From positions 4,800,001 through 4,864,000 of the forward strand of contig OZ245365.1 of NCBI GenBank assembly GCA_965226495.1: 64,000 nt of DNA. Reading direction: 5' to 3'. Positions 2 through 7,775 of the stretch are shown here, piece after piece. Every line of letters begins with the position of its first letter. Position 1 is the first letter of the stretch. The notes under the pieces were generated by a model that made no database searches, was not told the origin of the DNA, and saw only the letters and a list, made by a program, of their open reading frames with translations. The DNA is from Candidatus Marinacidobacterales bacterium (GTDB lineage Bacteria > Acidobacteriota > Vicinamibacteria > Marinacidobacterales > DATDRI01). The position numbers were made by a program, and so were the translations under genes.

Positions 2-244
2 CGAGTCATCGTCGCTGGCCTCGACCAAGACTACCTAGGCAAGCCCTTCGAACCGATCCCACAGTTACTCGCCATTGCGGAATACATCACCAAGACCTTG
101 GCCATCTGCATGCGTTGCGGAAACCCTGCGAATCACACCCAGCGACTCGTCACGTCTCACGAGAGAGTCGTGGTCGGCGGCTCGGAGGCCTACGAAGCGC
201 GCTGTAGACGGTGCTTCGAGCCCGGCCCGGCGAGCGACAACTGA
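2..244 (+). CDS. tdk: Thymidine kinase, C-terminal part (5' truncated by window edge)
   Basis: Manual translation of frame 2: [18 protein letters not shown]...AICMRCG...[15 protein letters not shown]. Contains the GLD-x-D motif and the zinc-binding CxxC pairs of type II thymidine kinases. Confidence 0.93.
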
Positions 245-1308
245 ACCTTTCGCAGCCCTTCCACCCATAGGTTGGCGCCGAGCACTGCAAGGGTAAGCGC
301 CCCACCCGGCACGGCGAGCGTCCACCAGTATCGCGTCATCGAAGTGTAGTTCGAGGCCGCGGATGCCAACATGTTTCCCCAACTCGCATTCGGCTCTTGC
401 ACTCCAAGGCCTAAGAACGAAAGCGTCGCCTCACCCAAAAGGAAATACGGTAGCGTGAGCCCCACCTGCAACAGCAACAGAGGAAGCGTATTCGGAAGGA
501 TGTGCCGGAAGAAGAGTCGACTCCGGCCGGCCCCAGCGGCGACCGCGGACGTGGCAAATTCGCGCTCTCGCAGCGACAAAACGTGCCCTCGCACAAGTCG
601 TGAAACACCGCACCAGCCCACGAGCGCCAACGACCCAACCAGAATCAAGGCTGCCCAACCCGGGGCCAGGTCGTCAGGAAAGACGTTTCGGACCGCGAGA
701 ATCAGATAAAGCGCCGGGAGAGCCATGAAGAGCTCCGTCGACCGCATCAACCATCGATCCCAGACTCCTCCGCCAATAGCCGCCGCGGCTCCCACCAGAG
801 CGCCCAAGGTCACAGTGAGCAGAACGCCTAAGATCGCGGCGGTCGCACTAACCCTGGCACCATGGAGCACCCTCGACAGTAGGTCTCTTCCCAGAGCGTC
901 GGTACCCAGGAGATGGGCTCGGCAACCCTGAAATCCGAACAAATGAGTGGACCCATTCTCGTCCGCCACCAGCCAGCGAACCGAGCAGCCTGCGCTCGGA
1001 AGCGAAGGCGGATGGTGGAAGCTCTCCCGATCCTGGGATCGCGGGCTGTAGGGTGCCAAGAAGGAAGCCCCGAGTCCGGCGACCGCGATGACCGAAAGCA
1101 GGGCGATCCCGATGCGGGAACCTCTATCAATGCCGCGGGGCCCCACCCCCACGGCTTGTCCCTTCGCCGGCAAGCGGCTGCAGAACGGCTGAGGGCTCTT
1201 ATTATCAATGCCGCGGGGCCCCACCCCCACGGCTTGTCCCTTCGCCGGCAAGCGGCTGCAGGACGGCTGAGGGCTCTTATTAGCCCACCAACTTGGTTTC
1301 CACAACAT
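190..1308 (-). CDS. Oligopeptide/dipeptide ABC transporter permease (DppC/OppC type); true start uncertain and may lie within the repeats
   Basis: [25 protein letters not shown]-like loop ([11 protein letters not shown]...RHILPN) and LSFLGLG...WGNML motifs. The first ~60 codons are repeat-derived. Confidence 0.9.
1125..1282. repeat. Two tandem 78-bp copies of a dispersed GC-rich hairpin repeat
   Basis: 1125-1202 and 1203-1280 are identical except for one base (cagaacgg vs caggacgg). Confidence 0.95.
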
Positions 1309-1407
1309 TAGTGACTCACTGCGCGCTCACTCCACGTTCGCGCGCTTGCCGCCTCGCTCCTCGCTCGGCGGTCTGTTGTCGGCCCACTCGGGCCGGGCTC
1401 GCTCCCT

Positions 1408-1494
1408 TATCAATGCGGCGGGGTCCCCACCCCCACCGCCGTCCCTTCGCCGGCAAGCGGCTCCGGGACAGCTGATGGCTCCTCGCGCAAGGTG
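1408..1494. repeat. Third copy (variant) of the dispersed hairpin repeat
   Basis: Shares tatcaatg..gggg..ccccacccccac..gtcccttcgccggcaagcggct with copies 1-2. Near-identical to the reverse complement of 49022-49106. Confidence 0.92.
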
Positions 1495-1517
1495 CAGTGC
1501 GCTCCTTGAGCACCCTG

Positions 1518-2489
1518 CTAGCCTTCTTCCATTCTGATTCGTGGGTCGGCGGCGCCGGTCAACAGGTCCGCGATCAGATTGCCGAAGAGGATCAAGACCG
1601 ATGCAAGAACCAACACACCGAGCAGCAAGAACGAATCCCGGGCGAGCAATCCGCCGAATGCGAGCCTCCCCATACCCGGCCATCCGACAATCACCTCGAT
1701 GAGAAATGCGCCGTTCAAGAACCGCGCTAGAGAAGCACCCGCGAATGCGATGAGTGGGACCATTGCCGGCCGAAGACCGTAGCGCACGAGTATCTGGCTT
1801 TCGGTAAGACCACGGGAACGCGCCGCCCTCACGAACTCCGAGGGTAGGACTTCGAGTAAAGCGCCTCTAGCCTGCAGAAAGAAAAGAGGGGACATCGAAA
1901 AACTAAGGAGGAGCGCCGGCAACAGCAGATGCCGAGCATGATCCAACACCCGGCTCGACCATGGGAGCTCGAGAGAGCCGGCCATGGAGCCACCACCGGT
2001 TGGAAGCAAACCGGTGGCGGCGGCAATTCCCAAACCACCCACCGCGAGTACCAAAGTGGGAACCGAGACGGCCCCGAGTGCTAGGCCAGCGAGGATTCGA
2101 TCTAGCGATCGTCCCGGACGAACCATCGCGAGAAGGCCGAGCCCCAAACCGACGAGGGACGAAACGACCAAGGCCGTCAGCACGAGCGCAAGCGTATAGA
2201 GGGCGGCCTCGCCCAGGAGCTCCGCTACTGGACGTTGAAACCGCAGAGAGACGCCCAGGTCGCCGCGGACCGCTCCCGTCAGCCACGACAGGTATTGTTC
2301 ATACCAAGGTTTGTCGAGACCGAAGCGGCTCACTAACGCGTCGACCGTCGAGGGAGGGATCCCTGGATCCAGACGCAAGCGATCGACAAACGCGCCGGGC
2401 GCCAGGTGGAGGAGCAGAAACGAGAAGAAGCTCACCCCGAAGAGCAAGGGAATGGCAGCCAGCAATCTCGTGAGCGCCATACGAGCCAC
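1518..2489 (-). CDS. Oligopeptide/dipeptide ABC transporter permease (DppB/OppB type)
   Basis: FGLDKPWYEQY, GDLGVS, EFVRAARSRGL, IEVIVGWPGMGRL and ADPRIR motifs. Alternative ATG at 2480. Confidence 0.93.
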   Translation of the reverse strand: MARMALTRLLAAIPLLFGVSFFSFLLLHLAPGAFVDRLRLDPGIPPSTVDALVSRFGLDKPWYEQYLSWLTGAVRGDLGVSLRFQRPVAELLGEAALYTLALVLTALVVSSLVGLGLGLLAMVRPGRSLDRILAGLALGAVSVPTLVLAVGGLGIAAATGLLPTGGGSMAGSLELPWSSRVLDHARHLLLPALLLSFSMSPLFFLQARGALLEVLPSEFVRAARSRGLTESQILVRYGLRPAMVPLIAFAGASLARFLNGAFLIEVIVGWPGMGRLAFGGLLARDSFLLLGVLVLASVLILFGNLIADLLTGAADPRIRMEEG

Positions 2490-2569
2490 GACGCGTCAAG
2501 CCTCGACAACAGGTCGCTTAGGGCGTGGGTAACAAACCCTCATGGGGGCCAGAAGATTCCGCCGCTCGT

Positions 2570-5080
2570 TTATCCCACGCGGCGATCGGTCTTGTCCTCG
2601 GCTCCGAAGAGGCTGGGCTGATGTGCGGTGCGATCGGACTCCTCCGGTCTCCGGCGACGCATCTTTCGACGACTCTTTTGATCGTACATGTTTCTATCCG
2701 CCGCCATGAGCAGCGACTCGAGATCGTCGCCGTCGGCGGAGAAAGCCGCGAGCCCGAGGGATATGCCAACGCTCAACATCTTTCCGATCCCGACGTCGAT
2801 GTCGGATGTCTCCACGACCTCCTGCAGCCGACGGGAGAACTGAACGGCCTGTTCCATCGTGGTTTTTGGCAAGACAGCAATGAACTCGTCCCCGGCATAG
2901 CGGACCAACACGTCACTGTCTCGCATCTCGGCCTTCAGGATGCGTCCCACTTCTTTGAGGAACCGATCCCCGGCATGATGACCGAAACGGTCGTTGACGC
3001 TCTTGAAGTCGTCCAGGTCCAGCTCGATGACGGTGAGCGGCTCGTCGTAGCGTTTGGCTTCCGAAAGGGTCTGCTCGAAGAAAATGTAGAGGAAGCGCGA
3101 GTTCGCCAGACCGGTCAAGCGATCGGTGAAGGCGTCCTCCTGGGTCTCCTCGAAGCGAATGGCGTTGTAGAGCGCGATCGATGAACGGTTGGCGATGATC
3201 TCCATCAACCGCACATGGTCATGCGAATACCGCTCGTTCCCCGACCAATAGAGCGCGATCGTTCCGAGCGGTCGTTCCTCGTGAACCAACGGAGCCAAGA
3301 TGGAGTTGTGGTAGTTCTTTCGGAACTGCTCAGGAAGAAGCATCACGTCCGGACCTGGGTGCACGTTGTAGAGCATACGGTTGTTGGCGGCCACCCAACC
3401 CGCCAATCGGGTCCCGAACTCGATGGACACCTCCTTGAAGGCGTCTGGGTTTTGCCCGGTGATGTGAGCAGGTGTTAGTACTCCCTGGCCATCGTCCACC
3501 AGATAGATGACGAGCGTGCTAAACGGAATGATCTTCTCGATCTTGGATGCAATGATGGTGAGCGTGTCGGGACGGGACAAGGAGTTGCCAATGGTCTGCA
3601 AGATTTCGAATAGAGCAAATACCTCCCGCTGCGGCTCGGAGATAGAGTCGCTAAAAGCGGGTGCCTGAGGCACGCCCACGATGTCCGGCATCCGTTTCCT
3701 GTCTCGATACTCCTTCGGCGCCGCCATCTCCCGCACCGCCAATGTTCCTAGCTGCTCGTCGAGCTCATCTACGATCTCCAGGAATTTGTTGAAGACCCGG
3801 GGATCGAACCGATGTGCTTCCCGTTTCATGGTCGAGATTGCCGTTTCCCGATCCAGGGAGCGGCGGTAGACTCGGCGGGCGGTGAGCGCCTCGTAACAAT
3901 CGGCAACCGACATGATCCGGGAGCCAAACGGGATCTCTTCGCCTTTGAGCCCGTCCGGGTAACCGCTCCCGTCCCAATTCTCGTGATGATGTTTCACATA
4001 GGGAATGACCGGTACCGGAAAGTCGATAGTGGAGAGGATCTGAGCACCCACCGCTGGGTGCGTACTCATCTTCTGGAACTCCCTTTCCGTCAAACGCGTG
4101 GGTTTGTGAAGGATGTACGACGGGATCGAGATCTTGCCCACATCGTGTAACACGGAGGCGAACCAAAGTCCCTCATAAGTCTTATCGTCGACACCCAACG
4201 CGCGCGCCAATGCCAGTGTCAGCAAACGGGTGCGCTGAATATGTGTACTGGTGTGATGCTTGTAGTCAGTATGGAGCTCTAGCGCGTCGATCGAGAGCGC
4301 GAAGGCCTCCGCGGTCTGATAGTAGAGCTGGGTCAGGTCCTCGTACTTCTCGTTGTAGAAATGATGGGCGTAGTAAACCACCAGAAGGATAGGGAGACCG
4401 AGCAGGAAAGCCCAGGGCCCGGCTACTTGATGGAAAAAGAAGATGACGGCTGCCCCGGAAGCGGAAGCGAGAAAGTAAAGGGGAACCAAAGGTAGATTCT
4501 GTCGCCACATGGCCCAGAAGCCACCTCGACCGGTTACCGCCATCATGGCGTGCATCGATGCCGAATTGATGAGGAAGTAGGTTCCAGCCAACAAGACGAC
4601 CGGAGGAATTATTTGATAGGCGCTTGTCAATTCCGGAGGCACGAAGGCGTAATACACATGACCATAGACGAAGGCGAAGATGCCACCTGATGCAGTATTG
4701 AAGATGGCTTGACTGCTCTTCCAGCCTAGGCTCTTGGATCGATGTACCAGCTGCTTCTTCTTGGTCGTGAACCAGTAACCGACCAAGTGAAAGAGGCCGT
4801 TCGCGACGACCCCCGGCGCCACTCCGTAGATCAGGGTGACGGAGAGAATCAAACAGTCGGCGACGGCCATCCAGGTGTTGGTGCGGGGGATTCGAACGAC
4901 CCATTTGGAGCTGAGCGAAGCGACGGCGGTCAGGGCGGCGAGGGATATCCAGTCCTGCCAAGTGTAAACTTGCCGGAGTTGGATGAGATTATGGACGGCC
5001 CAGACGAAAATAGGGACCGCCGCGGCGACGGATGCCGCAATATAAAGTTTGACTCTGGCTGGCCGATTTTGCCAGTCCAA
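2570..5080 (-). CDS. Multi-pass membrane sensor with HD-GYP, GAF and GGDEF domains (c-di-GMP metabolism)
   Basis: Hydrophobic N-terminal ~240 aa. LHDVGKI and HHENWDGSGYPDGL (HD-GYP), a GAF-like segment, then TDRLTGLAN, DLDDFKSVND and RDSD..RYAGDEF (GGDEF variant with RxxD). Confidence 0.92.
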   Translation of the reverse strand: MDWQNRPARVKLYIAASVAAAVPIFVWAVHNLIQLRQVYTWQDWISLAALTAVASLSSKWVVRIPRTNTWMAVADCLILSVTLIYGVAPGVVANGLFHLVGYWFTTKKKQLVHRSKSLGWKSSQAIFNTASGGIFAFVYGHVYYAFVPPELTSAYQIIPPVVLLAGTYFLINSASMHAMMAVTGRGGFWAMWRQNLPLVPLYFLASASGAAVIFFFHQVAGPWAFLLGLPILLVVYYAHHFYNEKYEDLTQLYYQTAEAFALSIDALELHTDYKHHTSTHIQRTRLLTLALARALGVDDKTYEGLWFASVLHDVGKISIPSYILHKPTRLTEREFQKMSTHPAVGAQILSTIDFPVPVIPYVKHHHENWDGSGYPDGLKGEEIPFGSRIMSVADCYEALTARRVYRRSLDRETAISTMKREAHRFDPRVFNKFLEIVDELDEQLGTLAVREMAAPKEYRDRKRMPDIVGVPQAPAFSDSISEPQREVFALFEILQTIGNSLSRPDTLTIIASKIEKIIPFSTLVIYLVDDGQGVLTPAHITGQNPDAFKEVSIEFGTRLAGWVAANNRMLYNVHPGPDVMLLPEQFRKNYHNSILAPLVHEERPLGTIALYWSGNERYSHDHVRLMEIIANRSSIALYNAIRFEETQEDAFTDRLTGLANSRFLYIFFEQTLSEAKRYDEPLTVIELDLDDFKSVNDRFGHHAGDRFLKEVGRILKAEMRDSDVLVRYAGDEFIAVLPKTTMEQAVQFSRRLQEVVETSDIDVGIGKMLSVGISLGLAAFSADGDDLESLLMAADRNMYDQKSRRKMRRRRPEESDRTAHQPSLFGAEDKTDRRVG

Positions 5081-5220
5081 CTGTGGCTCCCGGTTAGCAG
5101 AAAGAAAAGTCGAGTTAAGAGAGACTTCTATTTAAAAGTCCGATTCGATGACTGCTTTTCTTTTCCCCGTTACCGGGTTCATATTAATGAATGAGAACGG
5201 CGACAGAATGGAGAGAGGCG

Positions 5221-5250
5221 ATAGTAGCACAGCGGTACTGTGCCGGTCAA
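5221..5250 (-). promoter_or_regulatory. Sigma70-like promoter for the HD-GYP/GGDEF gene, with a dyad in the spacer
   Basis: Minus strand TTGACC-N18-TACTAT with an extended TG. The spacer contains GCACAG-N5-CTGTGC. Confidence 0.55.
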
Positions 5251-5273
5251 GATACTTGGGCGGGAAGCAAGCT

Positions 5274-5297
5274 GGAGGCCGCCGGGGGGCGGCCTCC
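5274..5297. terminator. Perfect 10-bp GC hairpin downstream of the micropeptide ORFs (terminator or stabilising stem)
   Basis: ggaggccgcc-gggg-ggcggcctcc. No strong U-tract follows. Confidence 0.5.
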
Positions 5298-5344
5298 CTC
5301 GCAAAGTCAATCAATTCAGGACGATCGGGTAACCAGCTTTTCTT

Positions 5345-5371
5345 CTAGACCCAAAGGATTCCGCGATTCAT
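5345..5371 (-). CDS. Micropeptide MNRGILWV (8 aa)
   Basis: atg aat cgc gga atc ctt tgg gtc tag. Paralog of 5582-5608 with synonymous differences. Weak RBS. Confidence 0.55.
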   Translation of the reverse strand: MNRGILWV

Positions 5372-5416
5372 GACATACACCGTTTCGGTTAATTGGTTAA
5401 CTTTCGGAGCCGACTA

Positions 5417-5512
5417 TTAGTTCCAAATCATCCCAGCAGCAGGAGCGGTCCGCTCTTCGAGCTCTTCCACGGTTAGTTCAACGATTTCGATGTTGTCGTT
5501 TTGAGTTTCCAT
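5417..5512 (-). CDS. 31-aa leader/core-type peptide METQNDNIEIVELTVEELEERTAPAAGMIWN
   Basis: Purine-rich RBS gaaagaaaggga upstream of ATG and a double stop TAA TAG. Acidic leader-like N-terminus and a GMIWN C-terminus matching the flanking micropeptides. Confidence 0.75.
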   Translation of the reverse strand: METQNDNIEIVELTVEELEERTAPAAGMIWN

Positions 5513-5581
5513 TGTTAGTCCCTTTCTTTCAATTAGTTGCGCCAGATTTAACTGAAAATCAAGAAATAAGCAATTTGAAAA

Positions 5582-5608
5582 CTAAACCCACAAAATTCCC
5601 TTGGTCAT
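5582..5608 (-). CDS. Micropeptide MTKGILWV (8 aa)
   Basis: GGAGGTGA-ccg-atg acc aag gga att ttg tgg gtt tag. Textbook Shine-Dalgarno. Paralog of 5345-5371. Confidence 0.7.
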   Translation of the reverse strand: MTKGILWV

Positions 5609-6035
5609 CGGTCACCTCCGTGAGATGCCCGACCTGGAAGGACACGCCGACCGGGCCGGGGATTGGGAAGGAAGCCCCCCTTGGAGGGATCTTCGCTCCC
5701 GGACTGAAAGGTTGAGTTGTTAAGAGGAGTGGTTCGGGTAAGCCAGCGGAAGGGGACTTGTTGGAACTGTCATGAATTCAAATAAAGGTCTTTGAATAAC
5801 TCAAGAACCCTTGGTGCAGCCCCTTTAGACCCACCGAAATTACCTACAAACCCTGCCTCTCGACCTCACCTCCTTGGACACTTAACCCACCGAACTTACA
5901 ACTCGAAACGTCTGCTATTTCTTGGACTTTTACTCTACGGTGGGAAAATACTCCGAGCACACCCGACAGTCAGTGACCGGGATCACCAAAGAGAAAATAT
6001 GGGATTTTCCCCCCGTTTTTCGGTTGTACCCTAAA

Positions 6036-7775
6036 TCACCTTATTAAGTAAAGTGCTTCGCTGTTCCAGAGGGTAGGGTGCCAGAAGGGCGTCGGCTCGA
6101 GGTTCCCGAGCCGGACGGTGGTACCCACCAAGGCGTGCGGCACGACCAGATCGATGACGGGGAGCTCTTCGACCACCAAGGCCTGCAGCTCGTCGATCAA
6201 TCCTTTGCGAGCTTCGTATTCGACCGCCATCATCTGCTGCTCCATCAGCTCGTCCAATCGCGCTTCCCATACAGAGGCGGGTTGCGACTGAGAGGGATGC
6301 CATACGTGCAAGGGCGAATGGCTGAGCCAAAGAGGCCTCTGCGTGGACGGATCGGGATCGGTAAAGCTAATCCCGAAGAGGCATGCCTGGTAGTCGAATG
6401 TACGCGTGATTCGGCTTATTAGGGTGGCGAAATCGAGCGAAACGAGGCTCATTTCGACCCCGATCCGCGCGAGGTCTTCTTGGATGAGCGTGGCCGTCTT
6501 CACGCGGGAGGGGTTGTTGGCGTTGGTGAGGAGCGTGAACCGCACGCGTTCTCCCCTTGGACCCACAAGCACTTCTCTCTCCTCGGTGAAGCCGGCCTGC
6601 GCCAGCAGTTCTCGAGCACGCTGCGGATCGTAGGGCGGAGGAGCGATAGACTCGTTCCACCACCGTCGGTTTGCCGAGGTGATGGGGCCGGCCGCCGGAG
6701 AAGCCAAACCCGCGTAGACGGCCTTCACGATGGATTGCCGGTCGATGGCCAGGGAAATGGCCCTTCGGAAGCGTCGATCGGTGAACCACGCTCGTTGCTC
6801 GGGCGACACCGAGCTCTCCGGGTTGAGATTGAACCAGATGCGCTCGGGAGTCGTCCCAGGGCCCAGATCGATGAGGCGCCGATCCGGAGCATCCTTCTCC
6901 CTGAAGCTGATGAAGTCCTCCGGCGGCAAGGGACTCAGAAGGTCGAGCTCCCCAGAGCCGAAGCGAAGCGCCAGAGCGTTCGCATCGGATAGGATTTCGA
7001 AAGTGATTCCGTCCAAATAAGGAAGCTGCTCTCCGTCCGGTCCGTACTTCCAGTAGTTGGGGTTGCGGCGGAGAACCACTCTCTGGCCAGGCACATACCG
7101 CTCGAGGACGAACGGGCCTAGACCTACGATCCCCTCAGAAACCCCGATTCCGTATTCGGATGCGAAGCTCCCATCCTCGAGCGAGGCTTGGAGCCTATGT
7201 CGAGGCAGGACCGGAATGCTATCGAAGATCCTCTCCACCACCGCGGTACGACGGGGTAGTCGGAACCGAACTGTTAACGGATCGACGACCTCTGGAACCA
7301 GAGGCTTCCCTTCGACCATCGCCGTTTCGACGAGCGGACTCGCCACTGCAGGATCATGCAAAGCCTGAAATGTGAACGCGACATCTGCAGCGGTCAGAGG
7401 CGTGCCATCTGAAAAACGGACATCGGGCCGGAGCTTGAAAGTCAGCTCCCGACTGTCCTCAGAGAAGGACCACGATTCGGCGAGCTCGGGCTCGAGCTCC
7501 TGCGTCAGCCGATTGACCCTTAGCAGAGCGGCGTGCAGACGCTCGGTAATTTGGTGGCTCACTTCATCGGTCGCAAGAAGTCGGTTCCAAGTCTGCGGCT
7601 CGCTGCGAATCCCCACTCGCAGCATGCCGCCGGCGACCGGGGTGCCGGGGATGGACGAATCCCCTTGGACCGCCTCCTCCTCCGTCAAACGGCACTGAGG
7701 GGCGATGAAGAGCGCCATGGTGGCGAGCGCAAGGGGCAAGGTAGATGCGCGTGACATCCACGTCATTGGGCCCAA
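6036..7775 (-). CDS. ABC transporter substrate-binding protein, family 5 (peptide/nickel type)
   Basis: N-terminal signal/lipoprotein-like segment. PELAESWSFS..TFKLRPDVRFSDGTPLTAADVAFTF, GLGPF and FRRAISLAIDR motifs. Confidence 0.93.
   Translation of the reverse strand: MGPMTWMSRASTLPLALATMALFIAPQCRLTEEEAVQGDSSIPGTPVAGGMLRVGIRSEPQTWNRLLATDEVSHQITERLHAALLRVNRLTQELEPELAESWSFSEDSRELTFKLRPDVRFSDGTPLTAADVAFTFQALHDPAVASPLVETAMVEGKPLVPEVVDPLTVRFRLPRRTAVVERIFDSIPVLPRHRLQASLEDGSFASEYGIGVSEGIVGLGPFVLERYVPGQRVVLRRNPNYWKYGPDGEQLPYLDGITFEILSDANALALRFGSGELDLLSPLPPEDFISFREKDAPDRRLIDLGPGTTPERIWFNLNPESSVSPEQRAWFTDRRFRRAISLAIDRQSIVKAVYAGLASPAAGPITSANRRWWNESIAPPPYDPQRARELLAQAGFTEEREVLVGPRGERVRFTLLTNANNPSRVKTATLIQEDLARIGVEMSLVSLDFATLISRITRTFDYQACLFGISFTDPDPSTQRPLWLSHSPLHVWHPSQSQPASVWEARLDELMEQQMMAVEYEARKGLIDELQALVVEELPVIDLVVPHALVGTTVRLGNLEPTPFWHPTLWNSEALYLIR

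Follow-up and report, generated by a model that had tools for sequence, protein, structure and literature searches.

The stretch of DNA analysed here, referred to as the window, comprises 64,000 nucleotides (nt) of the genome of a Candidatus Marinacidobacterales bacterium (G000, 6.34 Mb, a single contig; window at C1:4800001-4864000). On its minus strand it carries two micro-ORFs, minute open reading frames (ORFs) encoding MTKGILWV and MNRGILWV, and between them a longer ORF that resembles the precursor of a short peptide. These small ORFs occupy a spacer of 955 nt between the gene of a substrate-binding protein (SBP) and that of a membrane protein with HD-GYP, GAF and GGDEF domains, called the sensor below, which is followed by two ATP-binding cassette (ABC) permease genes; hemA and ccsA are divergent from the rest. 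About 14 genomes from two families, and also L185, show the same order of SBP, peptide cassette, sensor, permease and permease. All genomes compared are metagenome-assembled genomes, and the matches are split in several of them, maybe through sequencing frameshifts.

The two micro-ORFs lie where the preliminary description of this DNA had put them, the Shine-Dalgarno (SD) sequence that it gave for micro-ORF 1 is present, and the codons of the shared GILWV differ in four bases, all of them synonymous, as it had said. It had missed the 31-residue precursor-like ORF between the micro-ORFs, the operon context, which is similar to that of oligopeptide (Opp) transporters, and a second type of locus at which the same peptide is encoded. 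It had also missed a gene, elsewhere in the genome, for a daptide-type intramembrane protease fused to an HlyD adaptor. The features are listed in the table.

Table. Small ORFs, signals and operon genes of the window
Feature	Positions	Strand	Remarks
Micro-ORF 1, MTKGILWV and stop, ATG ACC AAG GGA ATT TTG TGG GTT TAG	5608-5582	minus	Orthologues in both families (f1, f2), with SD and synonymous changes, 18 copies
SD sequence GGAGGTGA of micro-ORF 1	5619-5612	minus	Three bases ahead of the ATG
Precursor-like ORF, 31 residues, METQNDNIEIVELTVEELEERTAPAAGMIWN	5512-5417	minus	Acidic leader with AP at its end, short hydrophobic core after it; between the micro-ORFs
Micro-ORF 2, MNRGILWV and stop, ATG AAT CGC GGA ATC CTT TGG GTC TAG	5371-5345	minus	Copy found only in family f1
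Inverted repeat, perfect, 10 bp, GC-rich, 4-nt loop	5274-5297	minus	3' of the peptide cassette, may be its transcript end; RNA-library contig 5244-5440 crosses it
Sigma-70-like site TTGACC-18-TACTAT	5221-5250	minus	Ahead of the sensor gene; consensus match only
Upstream region conserved among f1 genera	5609-5990	minus	Alignment of the window, L028 and L044; holds two 15-nt direct repeats
Family-5 (Opp/Dpp/Nik-type) SBP	7775-6036	minus	PF00496, E 4e-86; NCBIfam Opp4A-like match below cut-off; synteny
Membrane protein of 836 residues, HD-GYP, GAF and GGDEF (sensor)	5080-2570	minus	Pfam; orthologues 64-89% identity
Two ABC permease genes (BPD_transp_1)	1518-2489 and 190-1308	minus	End of the operon

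Conservation of the micro-ORFs as peptides

Judged by comparison of the sequences, the micro-ORFs are real genes whose peptides are conserved in two families of Acidobacteria, uncultured bacteria of soil and sediment. GILWV followed by a stop occurs three times in the six frames of G000. The pattern M-x(1,2)-G-[ILMV][ILMV]-W-x-stop occurs twice in the same six frames, both times as a micro-ORF of the window. Upstream of orthologous sensor genes, 16 of 17 regions contain an SD sequence, an ATG, one or two codons, G-I/V-L/V-W-V/I/A and a stop, the exception being L034. The motif was found in none of seven paralogue loci of G000 (0/7) and at none of 70 loci with non-orthologous HD-GYP/GGDEF genes, L053-L122, where frames of up to 60 residues were counted (0/70). 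The enrichment upstream of orthologous sensors that the preliminary description had proposed as a check is thus found. The rarity of the motif in the genome, its presence at nearly all the orthologous regions and its absence from the paralogue and non-orthologous loci show that the motif recurs above chance.

A pattern scan of the whole class covered 401 genomes, among which three families are labelled f1, f2 and f3. The positives comprise 3 of 7 f1 genomes plus G000 itself, 15 of 19 f2 genomes, none of 28 f3 genomes and 3 of 346 genomes of other families. The three positives outside f1-f3 are not genes, as two of them end in TGG instead of a stop and the third, the MMSGIFWM-stop of G066, is a chance match, antisense in an ABC permease gene and with no SD sequence. 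As a control, the reversed pattern gave 15 matches in the 401 genomes, 10 of them in G034. The ten matches in this one genome suggest a repeated element containing the pattern.

The variation among 18 orthologous copies follows the reading frame. The entropy of codon positions 1 and 2 is 0-0.5 bits, with one position at 1.3 bits; that of the third positions of the G, L and V codons is 1.6-1.9 bits, and the flanks reach 1.7-1.9 bits. TAG, TGA and TAA are all in use as stop codons. Within the peptide it is chiefly the five residues ahead of the stop that are conserved, and the N-terminal residues vary. The codon periodicity, the free third positions and the unconserved flanks therefore indicate selection on the peptide. 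The preliminary description had named the peptide, and not the DNA, as the target of selection, and this proposal is strongly supported by the periodicity and by the synonymous turnover across the two families.

Translation signals accompany most copies. Nearly all orthologues of micro-ORF 1 have an SD sequence of the GGAGG type 5-8 nt ahead of the ATG. Micro-ORF 2 has in the window a weak GGTG only, 7 nt upstream; among its six copies (the window, L028, L029, L037, L041 and L044), four have an SD sequence of the GGAG type.

The micro-ORFs of the spacer in the sensor operon are referred to as type 1. A free-standing mini-gene, M-(K/N/T)-T-N-G-I-L-W-V, was found in at least 13 genomes of family f2 and is referred to as type 2. 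Ten of the 12 type-2 loci inspected in detail are intact; among the variants, the stop codon is lost in G026 and the peptide reads MSCHGLLWI in G014. A TTGAC promoter-like site, whose spacing is conserved, and a GGAGG belong to the locus; a hairpin lies 2-6 nt past the stop, and then come a GC-rich hairpin and, in most loci, a T run. An Rfam scan of the type-2 loci returned nothing relevant. The gene that follows belongs to the aconitase family and has its own TATAAT 9-16 nt ahead of its ATG, and no SD sequence.

The third GILWV-stop of G000 (C1:1918867-1918896) has a TTG start and a GGAGG, and lies beside the transposase genes DUF772/DDE_Tnp_1 and Y2_Tnp (L042:9487-10923 and L042:4836-5630); the next gene encodes a VIT-VWA protein and not an aconitase-family protein. 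Although first taken for chance, the sequence upstream of it is similar by eye to that of the f2 loci, and it therefore looks like a type-2 copy that has been rearranged. A BLAST search with the type-2 region of G010 did not recover it. The peptide occurs in three contexts, the first and the second type-1 micro-ORF and the type-2 mini-gene. It is the unit under selection, and the three contexts have only the SD and the coding sequence in common.

The neighbouring precursor and the protease-HlyD fusion

The precursor-like ORF of the window ends, like the micro-ORFs, in G-hydrophobic-hydrophobic-W-x, with Asn as its last residue. In 14 regions, micro-ORF 1 is followed at a distance of 60-89 nt by a homologous SD-driven ORF of 25-43 residues. 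In the alignment of these 14 precursors (A2), an acidic N-terminal part ending in ..EL.VEELEER.AP is followed by G and three hydrophobic residues, often as G-x-x-W. The consensus is ELTVEELEERTAP followed by G, in which E16, E17, L18 and E19 are invariant and A23 and P24 are conserved at 90% or more. Cores of the precursors and of their wider family include GMIWN, GLVWT, GIVWGGP, GLIWAC, GIIWNG, GIVWAE, GIIIGL and GVIVAF. Among the small ORFs of G000, the window precursor is the sole carrier of the leader motif.

A profile search of 1.84 billion protein representatives retrieved 67 relatives at E<=1e-3, of which 13 reach E<=1e-10. Many are about 30 residues long, with cores such as GLIWAC, GIIWNG and GIVWAE, and in one of the proteins the micro-ORF is fused in frame to the precursor. 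More distant relatives (P0018, P0020, P0023, P0027 and P0029) have multiple cores, arranged as repeats of EELEE.IAPG, a core of 4-10 residues and NHNETLV. P0018 also has an N-terminal domain similar to M6 metalloproteases (TIGR03296, E 1e-14, below cut-off).

No family of Pfam or NCBIfam claims the precursors. The window precursor matched no NCBIfam family at E<=1, the daptide precursor models NF041808 and NF041805 included. P0001 and P0003 gave no match to the daptide models; among six relatives scanned, P0029 gave E 3e-4 and 20.4 bits (cut-off 25), and P0020 was marginal (E 0.82). Literature searches retrieved no paper with the string GILWV and none on such a peptide and cyclic dimeric guanosine monophosphate (c-di-GMP) system in Acidobacteria; the supplements of the daptide papers may list related leaders. 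On the basis of these literature searches and of the NCBIfam and Pfam scans, the family is undescribed.

G000 encodes a single fusion protein of 843 residues (C1, about 563,060-565,591), 4.2 Mb from the cassette, that could process such a precursor. Its N-terminal part matches the daptide intramembrane metalloprotease NF041824 with an E value of 1e-60 and 206 bits (cut-off 300) and has the motif HELAH; its C-terminal part is an HlyD-type adaptor. The gene is followed by one for a class-V pyridoxal phosphate (PLP) enzyme, PvdN-like at a score below cut-off, and this pairing is kept in six loci (L173, L176, L177, L179, L180 and L181). The fusion gene is present in all 7 f1 genomes, in 15 of 19 f2 genomes and in none of 28 f3 genomes, which at the level of families is the pattern of the cassette. 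No precursor-like ORF or micro-ORF motif was found within 1.5 kb of the protease-HlyD genes at 12 loci. Pfam matches to PqqD/RRE, where RRE is the recognition element for peptides that are synthesized by ribosomes and post-translationally modified (RiPPs), occur in G000, and none of them adjoins an M50 gene.

A direct genomic linkage of the precursor leader family to a protease-HlyD gene exists in another organism. The metagenome contig L183 (5744-6180) has two tandem precursors with the leader ..VEELEERxAP; about 400 nt downstream of them follows a gene homologous to that of the protease-HlyD fusion, with a product that is 32% identical over 797 residues and scores 218 bits against NF041824. 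The cores of these precursors are long and rich in Pro, Asn and Gly. A two-component system lies on one side of them, and the protease-HlyD gene followed by an aminotransferase gene on the other. The same precursor pair is carried by L184.

The leader invites comparison with the daptides. As described in the daptide papers, the daptide leader has the motif ELExMEAP, the core is aliphatic, and the leader is removed by an RRE-fused intramembrane protease; one example, from Table 1 of that work, is TfDapA1 with ..LELEMQELEAMEAP before GFW... When TfDapA1 (..LEMQELEAMEAP before GFW..) and the precursor (..LTVEELEERTAP before GIVW..) are set in register by eye, the predicted cut of the precursor falls, as in TfDapA1, after AP and before G. 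In both, the acidic leader E-L-E-x-x-x-A-P runs straight into a core with Gly at its start and many branched aliphatic residues, and G000 has the homologue of the intramembrane metalloprotease (MpaP in daptides) described above. However, the core here has 5-10 residues in place of about 20, and the C-terminal Thr that is invariant in daptides (MpaA/DapA) is absent, one of the 14 aligned precursors ending in Thr (GLVWT). In the Pfam scan, the neighbours of the cassette match no decarboxylase, aminotransferase or methyltransferase family, and the protease is encoded far from the cassette, is fused to an HlyD adaptor and stays below the family cut-off. Because the invariant C-terminal Thr and the long core are lacking, the precursor is not a daptide.

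Proposed peptide signalling and competing explanations

Our preferred interpretation is that the micro-ORFs encode free, trans-acting, leaderless and core-like signal peptides of a peptide-signalling cassette tied to c-di-GMP control. We put its probability at roughly 0.45. The micro-ORFs would be translated into hydrophobic peptides of 7-9 residues, x(1-3)-G-I-L-W-V, which would be functional entities themselves; leaderless as they are, they look like the core of the precursor next to them. That precursor would be cut after AP and then exported by the daptide-type intramembrane metalloprotease-HlyD fusion encoded elsewhere in the genome. The family-5 binding protein may capture short hydrophobic peptides, and the two permeases may take them up or sense them in transit, whereupon the membrane enzyme with HD-GYP, GAF and GGDEF domains, encoded between the transporter genes, would alter c-di-GMP. 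The mini-genes would provide the same kind of peptide without removal of a leader, the free-standing one from a promoter of its own and one or two others from beside the receptor and transporter. We favour this interpretation because the same peptide is found in three contexts with unrelated downstream sequence, and because the micro-ORF copies the core pattern of the adjacent precursor.

Membrane metalloproteases take part in the maturation of short hydrophobic peptides (SHPs), the pheromones of the SHP/Rgg systems. To our knowledge, leaderless mini-genes are not known in SHP/Rgg or RRNPP systems. In these Firmicutes systems, a short hydrophobic peptide is matured, exported and re-imported by oligopeptide transport, as described in two papers (PMC7564271, PMC3150281). 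The present locus likewise has a short hydrophobic peptide in a small precursor, and the PF00496 SBP and two BPD_transp_1 permeases that flank the cassette may serve in its uptake. In contrast, it belongs to another phylum, with an outer membrane, its leader is acidic and daptide-like, and it has leaderless mini-genes. The operon contains no regulator with tetratricopeptide repeats (TPR) or a helix-turn-helix (HTH); the receptor candidate is the membrane HD-GYP-GAF-GGDEF protein, and the output would be c-di-GMP.

Several observations weigh against the signalling interpretation. Translation, a free peptide, cleavage, and binding to the SBP or the sensor are predictions. No export route is evident for a leaderless cytoplasmic peptide. 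The Opp-like operon has no ATPase gene, either in the window from 190 to 7775 or in C1:4790000-4800200. Most precursors of family f2 have cores without Trp (for example GIIIGL), whereas the micro-ORF keeps its Trp. The shared distribution of cassette and fusion gene is a matter of consistency and not independent evidence, because the genomes are related. The type-2 copy is kept in G022, although a search at E<=1e-50 found no sensor orthologue in that genome, and also in G016 and G026, in which the protease-HlyD gene was not found; the peptide can therefore not rely on the sensor or the protease-HlyD protein alone. RNA-library data speak for the interpretation, with limited weight. The stretches 5244-5440 and 5448-5950 are tiled without a mismatch by five contigs from four RNA-library runs; these contigs span both micro-ORFs and the precursor, but they come from a single study and give neither strand, ends nor level, and carry-over of DNA is possible. 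Between 2400 and 8000, no contig of these runs lies on the SBP or sensor genes, which is uninformative because presence of the intergenic stretch was the criterion by which the runs had been selected. Finally, a very short hydrophobic ORF conserved just before its stop also has the appearance of an arrest peptide such as MsrDL.

The preliminary description had offered three roles for the peptides. That of a ligand of the downstream sensor is kept here as a possible part of the signalling interpretation and widened to the transporter, yet it cannot be the sole role, because the free-standing copy persists in G022. A Trp-sensing leader peptide is unsupported: the micro-ORF has a single Trp codon, its neighbours were not identified as trp genes, and G-x-x-W occurs in precursor cores as well. 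A leaderless signal peptide, in the sense of secretion, does not fit a product of 7-9 residues.

The main rival explanation is a cis-acting ribosome-arrest leader peptide of the MsrDL, ErmL or TnaC type, which we consider unlikely. The nascent ..GILWV would stall at or near the stop codon with a small molecule, an antibiotic or a metabolite, in the exit tunnel and remodel the downstream RNA; terminator formation would be prevented at type-2 loci, and translation of the precursor would be opened at type-1 loci. The micro-ORFs look the part, being short SD-driven and hydrophobic ORFs of 7-9 codons with the conserved residues directly before the stop, the variable ones at the N-terminus and another ORF downstream of every copy. 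A precedent is given in a preprint on MsrDL (MYLIFM), which with erythromycin stalls at its own stop codon and blocks a Rho-independent terminator. The similarity extends to length, 6-9 codons, and possibly to the hairpin and terminator-like structure directly after the stop of type 2, with the conserved hairpin, the GC-rich hairpin and the usual T run in this order. Most type-1 copies also have a TTTCRA word after the stop.

Arrest accounts less well for the surroundings of the micro-ORFs. In type 1, no conserved RNA structure is predicted between micro-ORF and precursor (0 pairs over 17 sequences), and the precursor SD is not sequestered in single-sequence folds. In type 2, read-through would not obviously serve the aconitase-family gene, because this gene has its own conserved TATAAT near the ATG and no SD sequence; no clear alternative antiterminator pairing was found. 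Unlike MsrDL, the micro-ORFs have no regulated resistance gene downstream and use any of the three stop codons, and three unrelated RNA contexts share nothing but the SD and the peptide. Arrest also leaves the likeness of the peptide to the adjacent precursor core unexplained. If the micro-ORFs do act by arrest, their peptides would constitute a new ribosomal sensor module.

It is improbable that the micro-ORFs, like the biarylitide genes, encode RiPP precursors reduced to a minimum and devoid of a leader. Their peptides of 7-9 residues would then be tailored by enzymes from other loci, such as the PLP enzyme beside the protease-HlyD gene acting at the Trp or at a terminus, to yield a natural product and not a signal. 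Extremely small peptide genes, missed by automatic annotation, do exist; the biarylitide precursor has five residues in a gene of 18 bp, according to PMC13417212. The micro-ORF peptide is core-like with an invariant Trp, and the class-V PLP enzyme beside the fusion gene in six loci and the aminotransferase gene after its homologue in L183 are possible tailoring partners. However, no modifying enzyme adjoins any of the three contexts, whose downstream genes encode the precursor and the sensor, the VIT-VWA protein, and the aconitase-family protein, with no P450 or other tailoring gene among them. The residue pattern also differs from that of the biarylitides, an enzyme would find no leader or follower to recognize, and the setting in an operon for a transporter and c-di-GMP argues for signalling over antibiosis.

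Erythromycin-resistance peptides are hydrophobic and, in their wider consensus, have a C-terminal Val. The micro-ORFs are very improbable as genes for ribosome-directed peptides of this kind, whose frequent translation in cis would clear a tunnel-bound drug as the engineered peptides do: a free-standing, strongly SD-driven mini-gene suits translation at high frequency, and GILWV has Leu in third place, where, according to the MsrDL preprint, pentapeptides conferring this resistance need Leu or Ile, but the known peptides are pentapeptides and those here have 7-9 residues, the loci have no link to resistance genes, and the precursor, the transporter and the c-di-GMP enzyme are left unexplained.

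The signalling interpretation can be carried one step further, to a cell-to-cell or self-sensing circuit of Acidobacteriota. The signal would be encoded twice, in a free-standing gene of nine codons and in a precursor matured by the protease-HlyD protein, and would be perceived by an Opp-like transporter coupled physically and genetically to a bifunctional c-di-GMP enzyme. This complete circuit is doubtful. If true, it would place an import-type peptide pheromone circuit outside Firmicutes, and its pheromone gene would be among the smallest known. Should the peptides be signals at all, a major soil phylum that is for the most part uncultured would have a route of peptide communication, and the sensing of peptides would be linked directly to c-di-GMP. 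Annotation does not see genes of 7-9 codons, and very few of them are known to matter. For such genes, the comparative data prove selection at the peptide level with unusual clarity, and they place the genes in a coherent set of parts.

Operon parts and minor observations

The N-terminal 255 residues of the sensor look MASE9-like, as suggested by an Atlas lead at 0.94 only. Its GGDEF signature is RYAGDEF in all eight aligned orthologues, and the HD and GYP motifs (HDVGK, HHENWDGSGYP) are intact. Complex prediction with the SBP alignment and the precursor alignment gave scores of 0.18 and 0.25, below the mark of 0.32 and obtained without controls, which speaks neither for nor against binding. 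Beyond the permeases lies a thymidine-kinase-like ORF on the other strand.

An RNA switch was considered for type 1 and rejected, as the single-sequence folds are inconsistent and RNAalifold predicts 0 pairs. The Rfam scan of 4800-6300 in the window gave one match, at chance level (asX1, E 0.75).

DnaA-box-like words, TTATCCACA, TGGATAACA, TGTGGAGAA and TGTGAATTC, are clustered just upstream of the type-2 promoter-like site (L143:1480-1560 and the matching parts of L142-L153). The type-2 locus is not the replication origin oriC: in G000, dnaA is at 5.69 Mb and the minimum of the GC skew at 5.68 Mb, and the copy is at 1.92 Mb; in G026, G018 and G008, dnaA is megabases away from the type-2 copy.

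The two direct repeats upstream of micro-ORF 1, ACCCACCGAAnTTAC on the plus strand, are 15 nt each (5829-5843 and 5885-5899) and 56 nt apart. Read on the minus strand as ..TTCGGTGGGT.., they bear a faint likeness to the 3' end of the micro-ORF, without a start codon.

The cassette appears to be decaying in L028 (G002), L029 (G003), L038 (G018), L040 (G016) and L034 (G034), in part perhaps through long-read error. The signs in these five loci are split SBP matches, a frameshifted precursor, an insertion of 1.7 kb, a deleted spacer and a sensor gene with an in-frame TAG.

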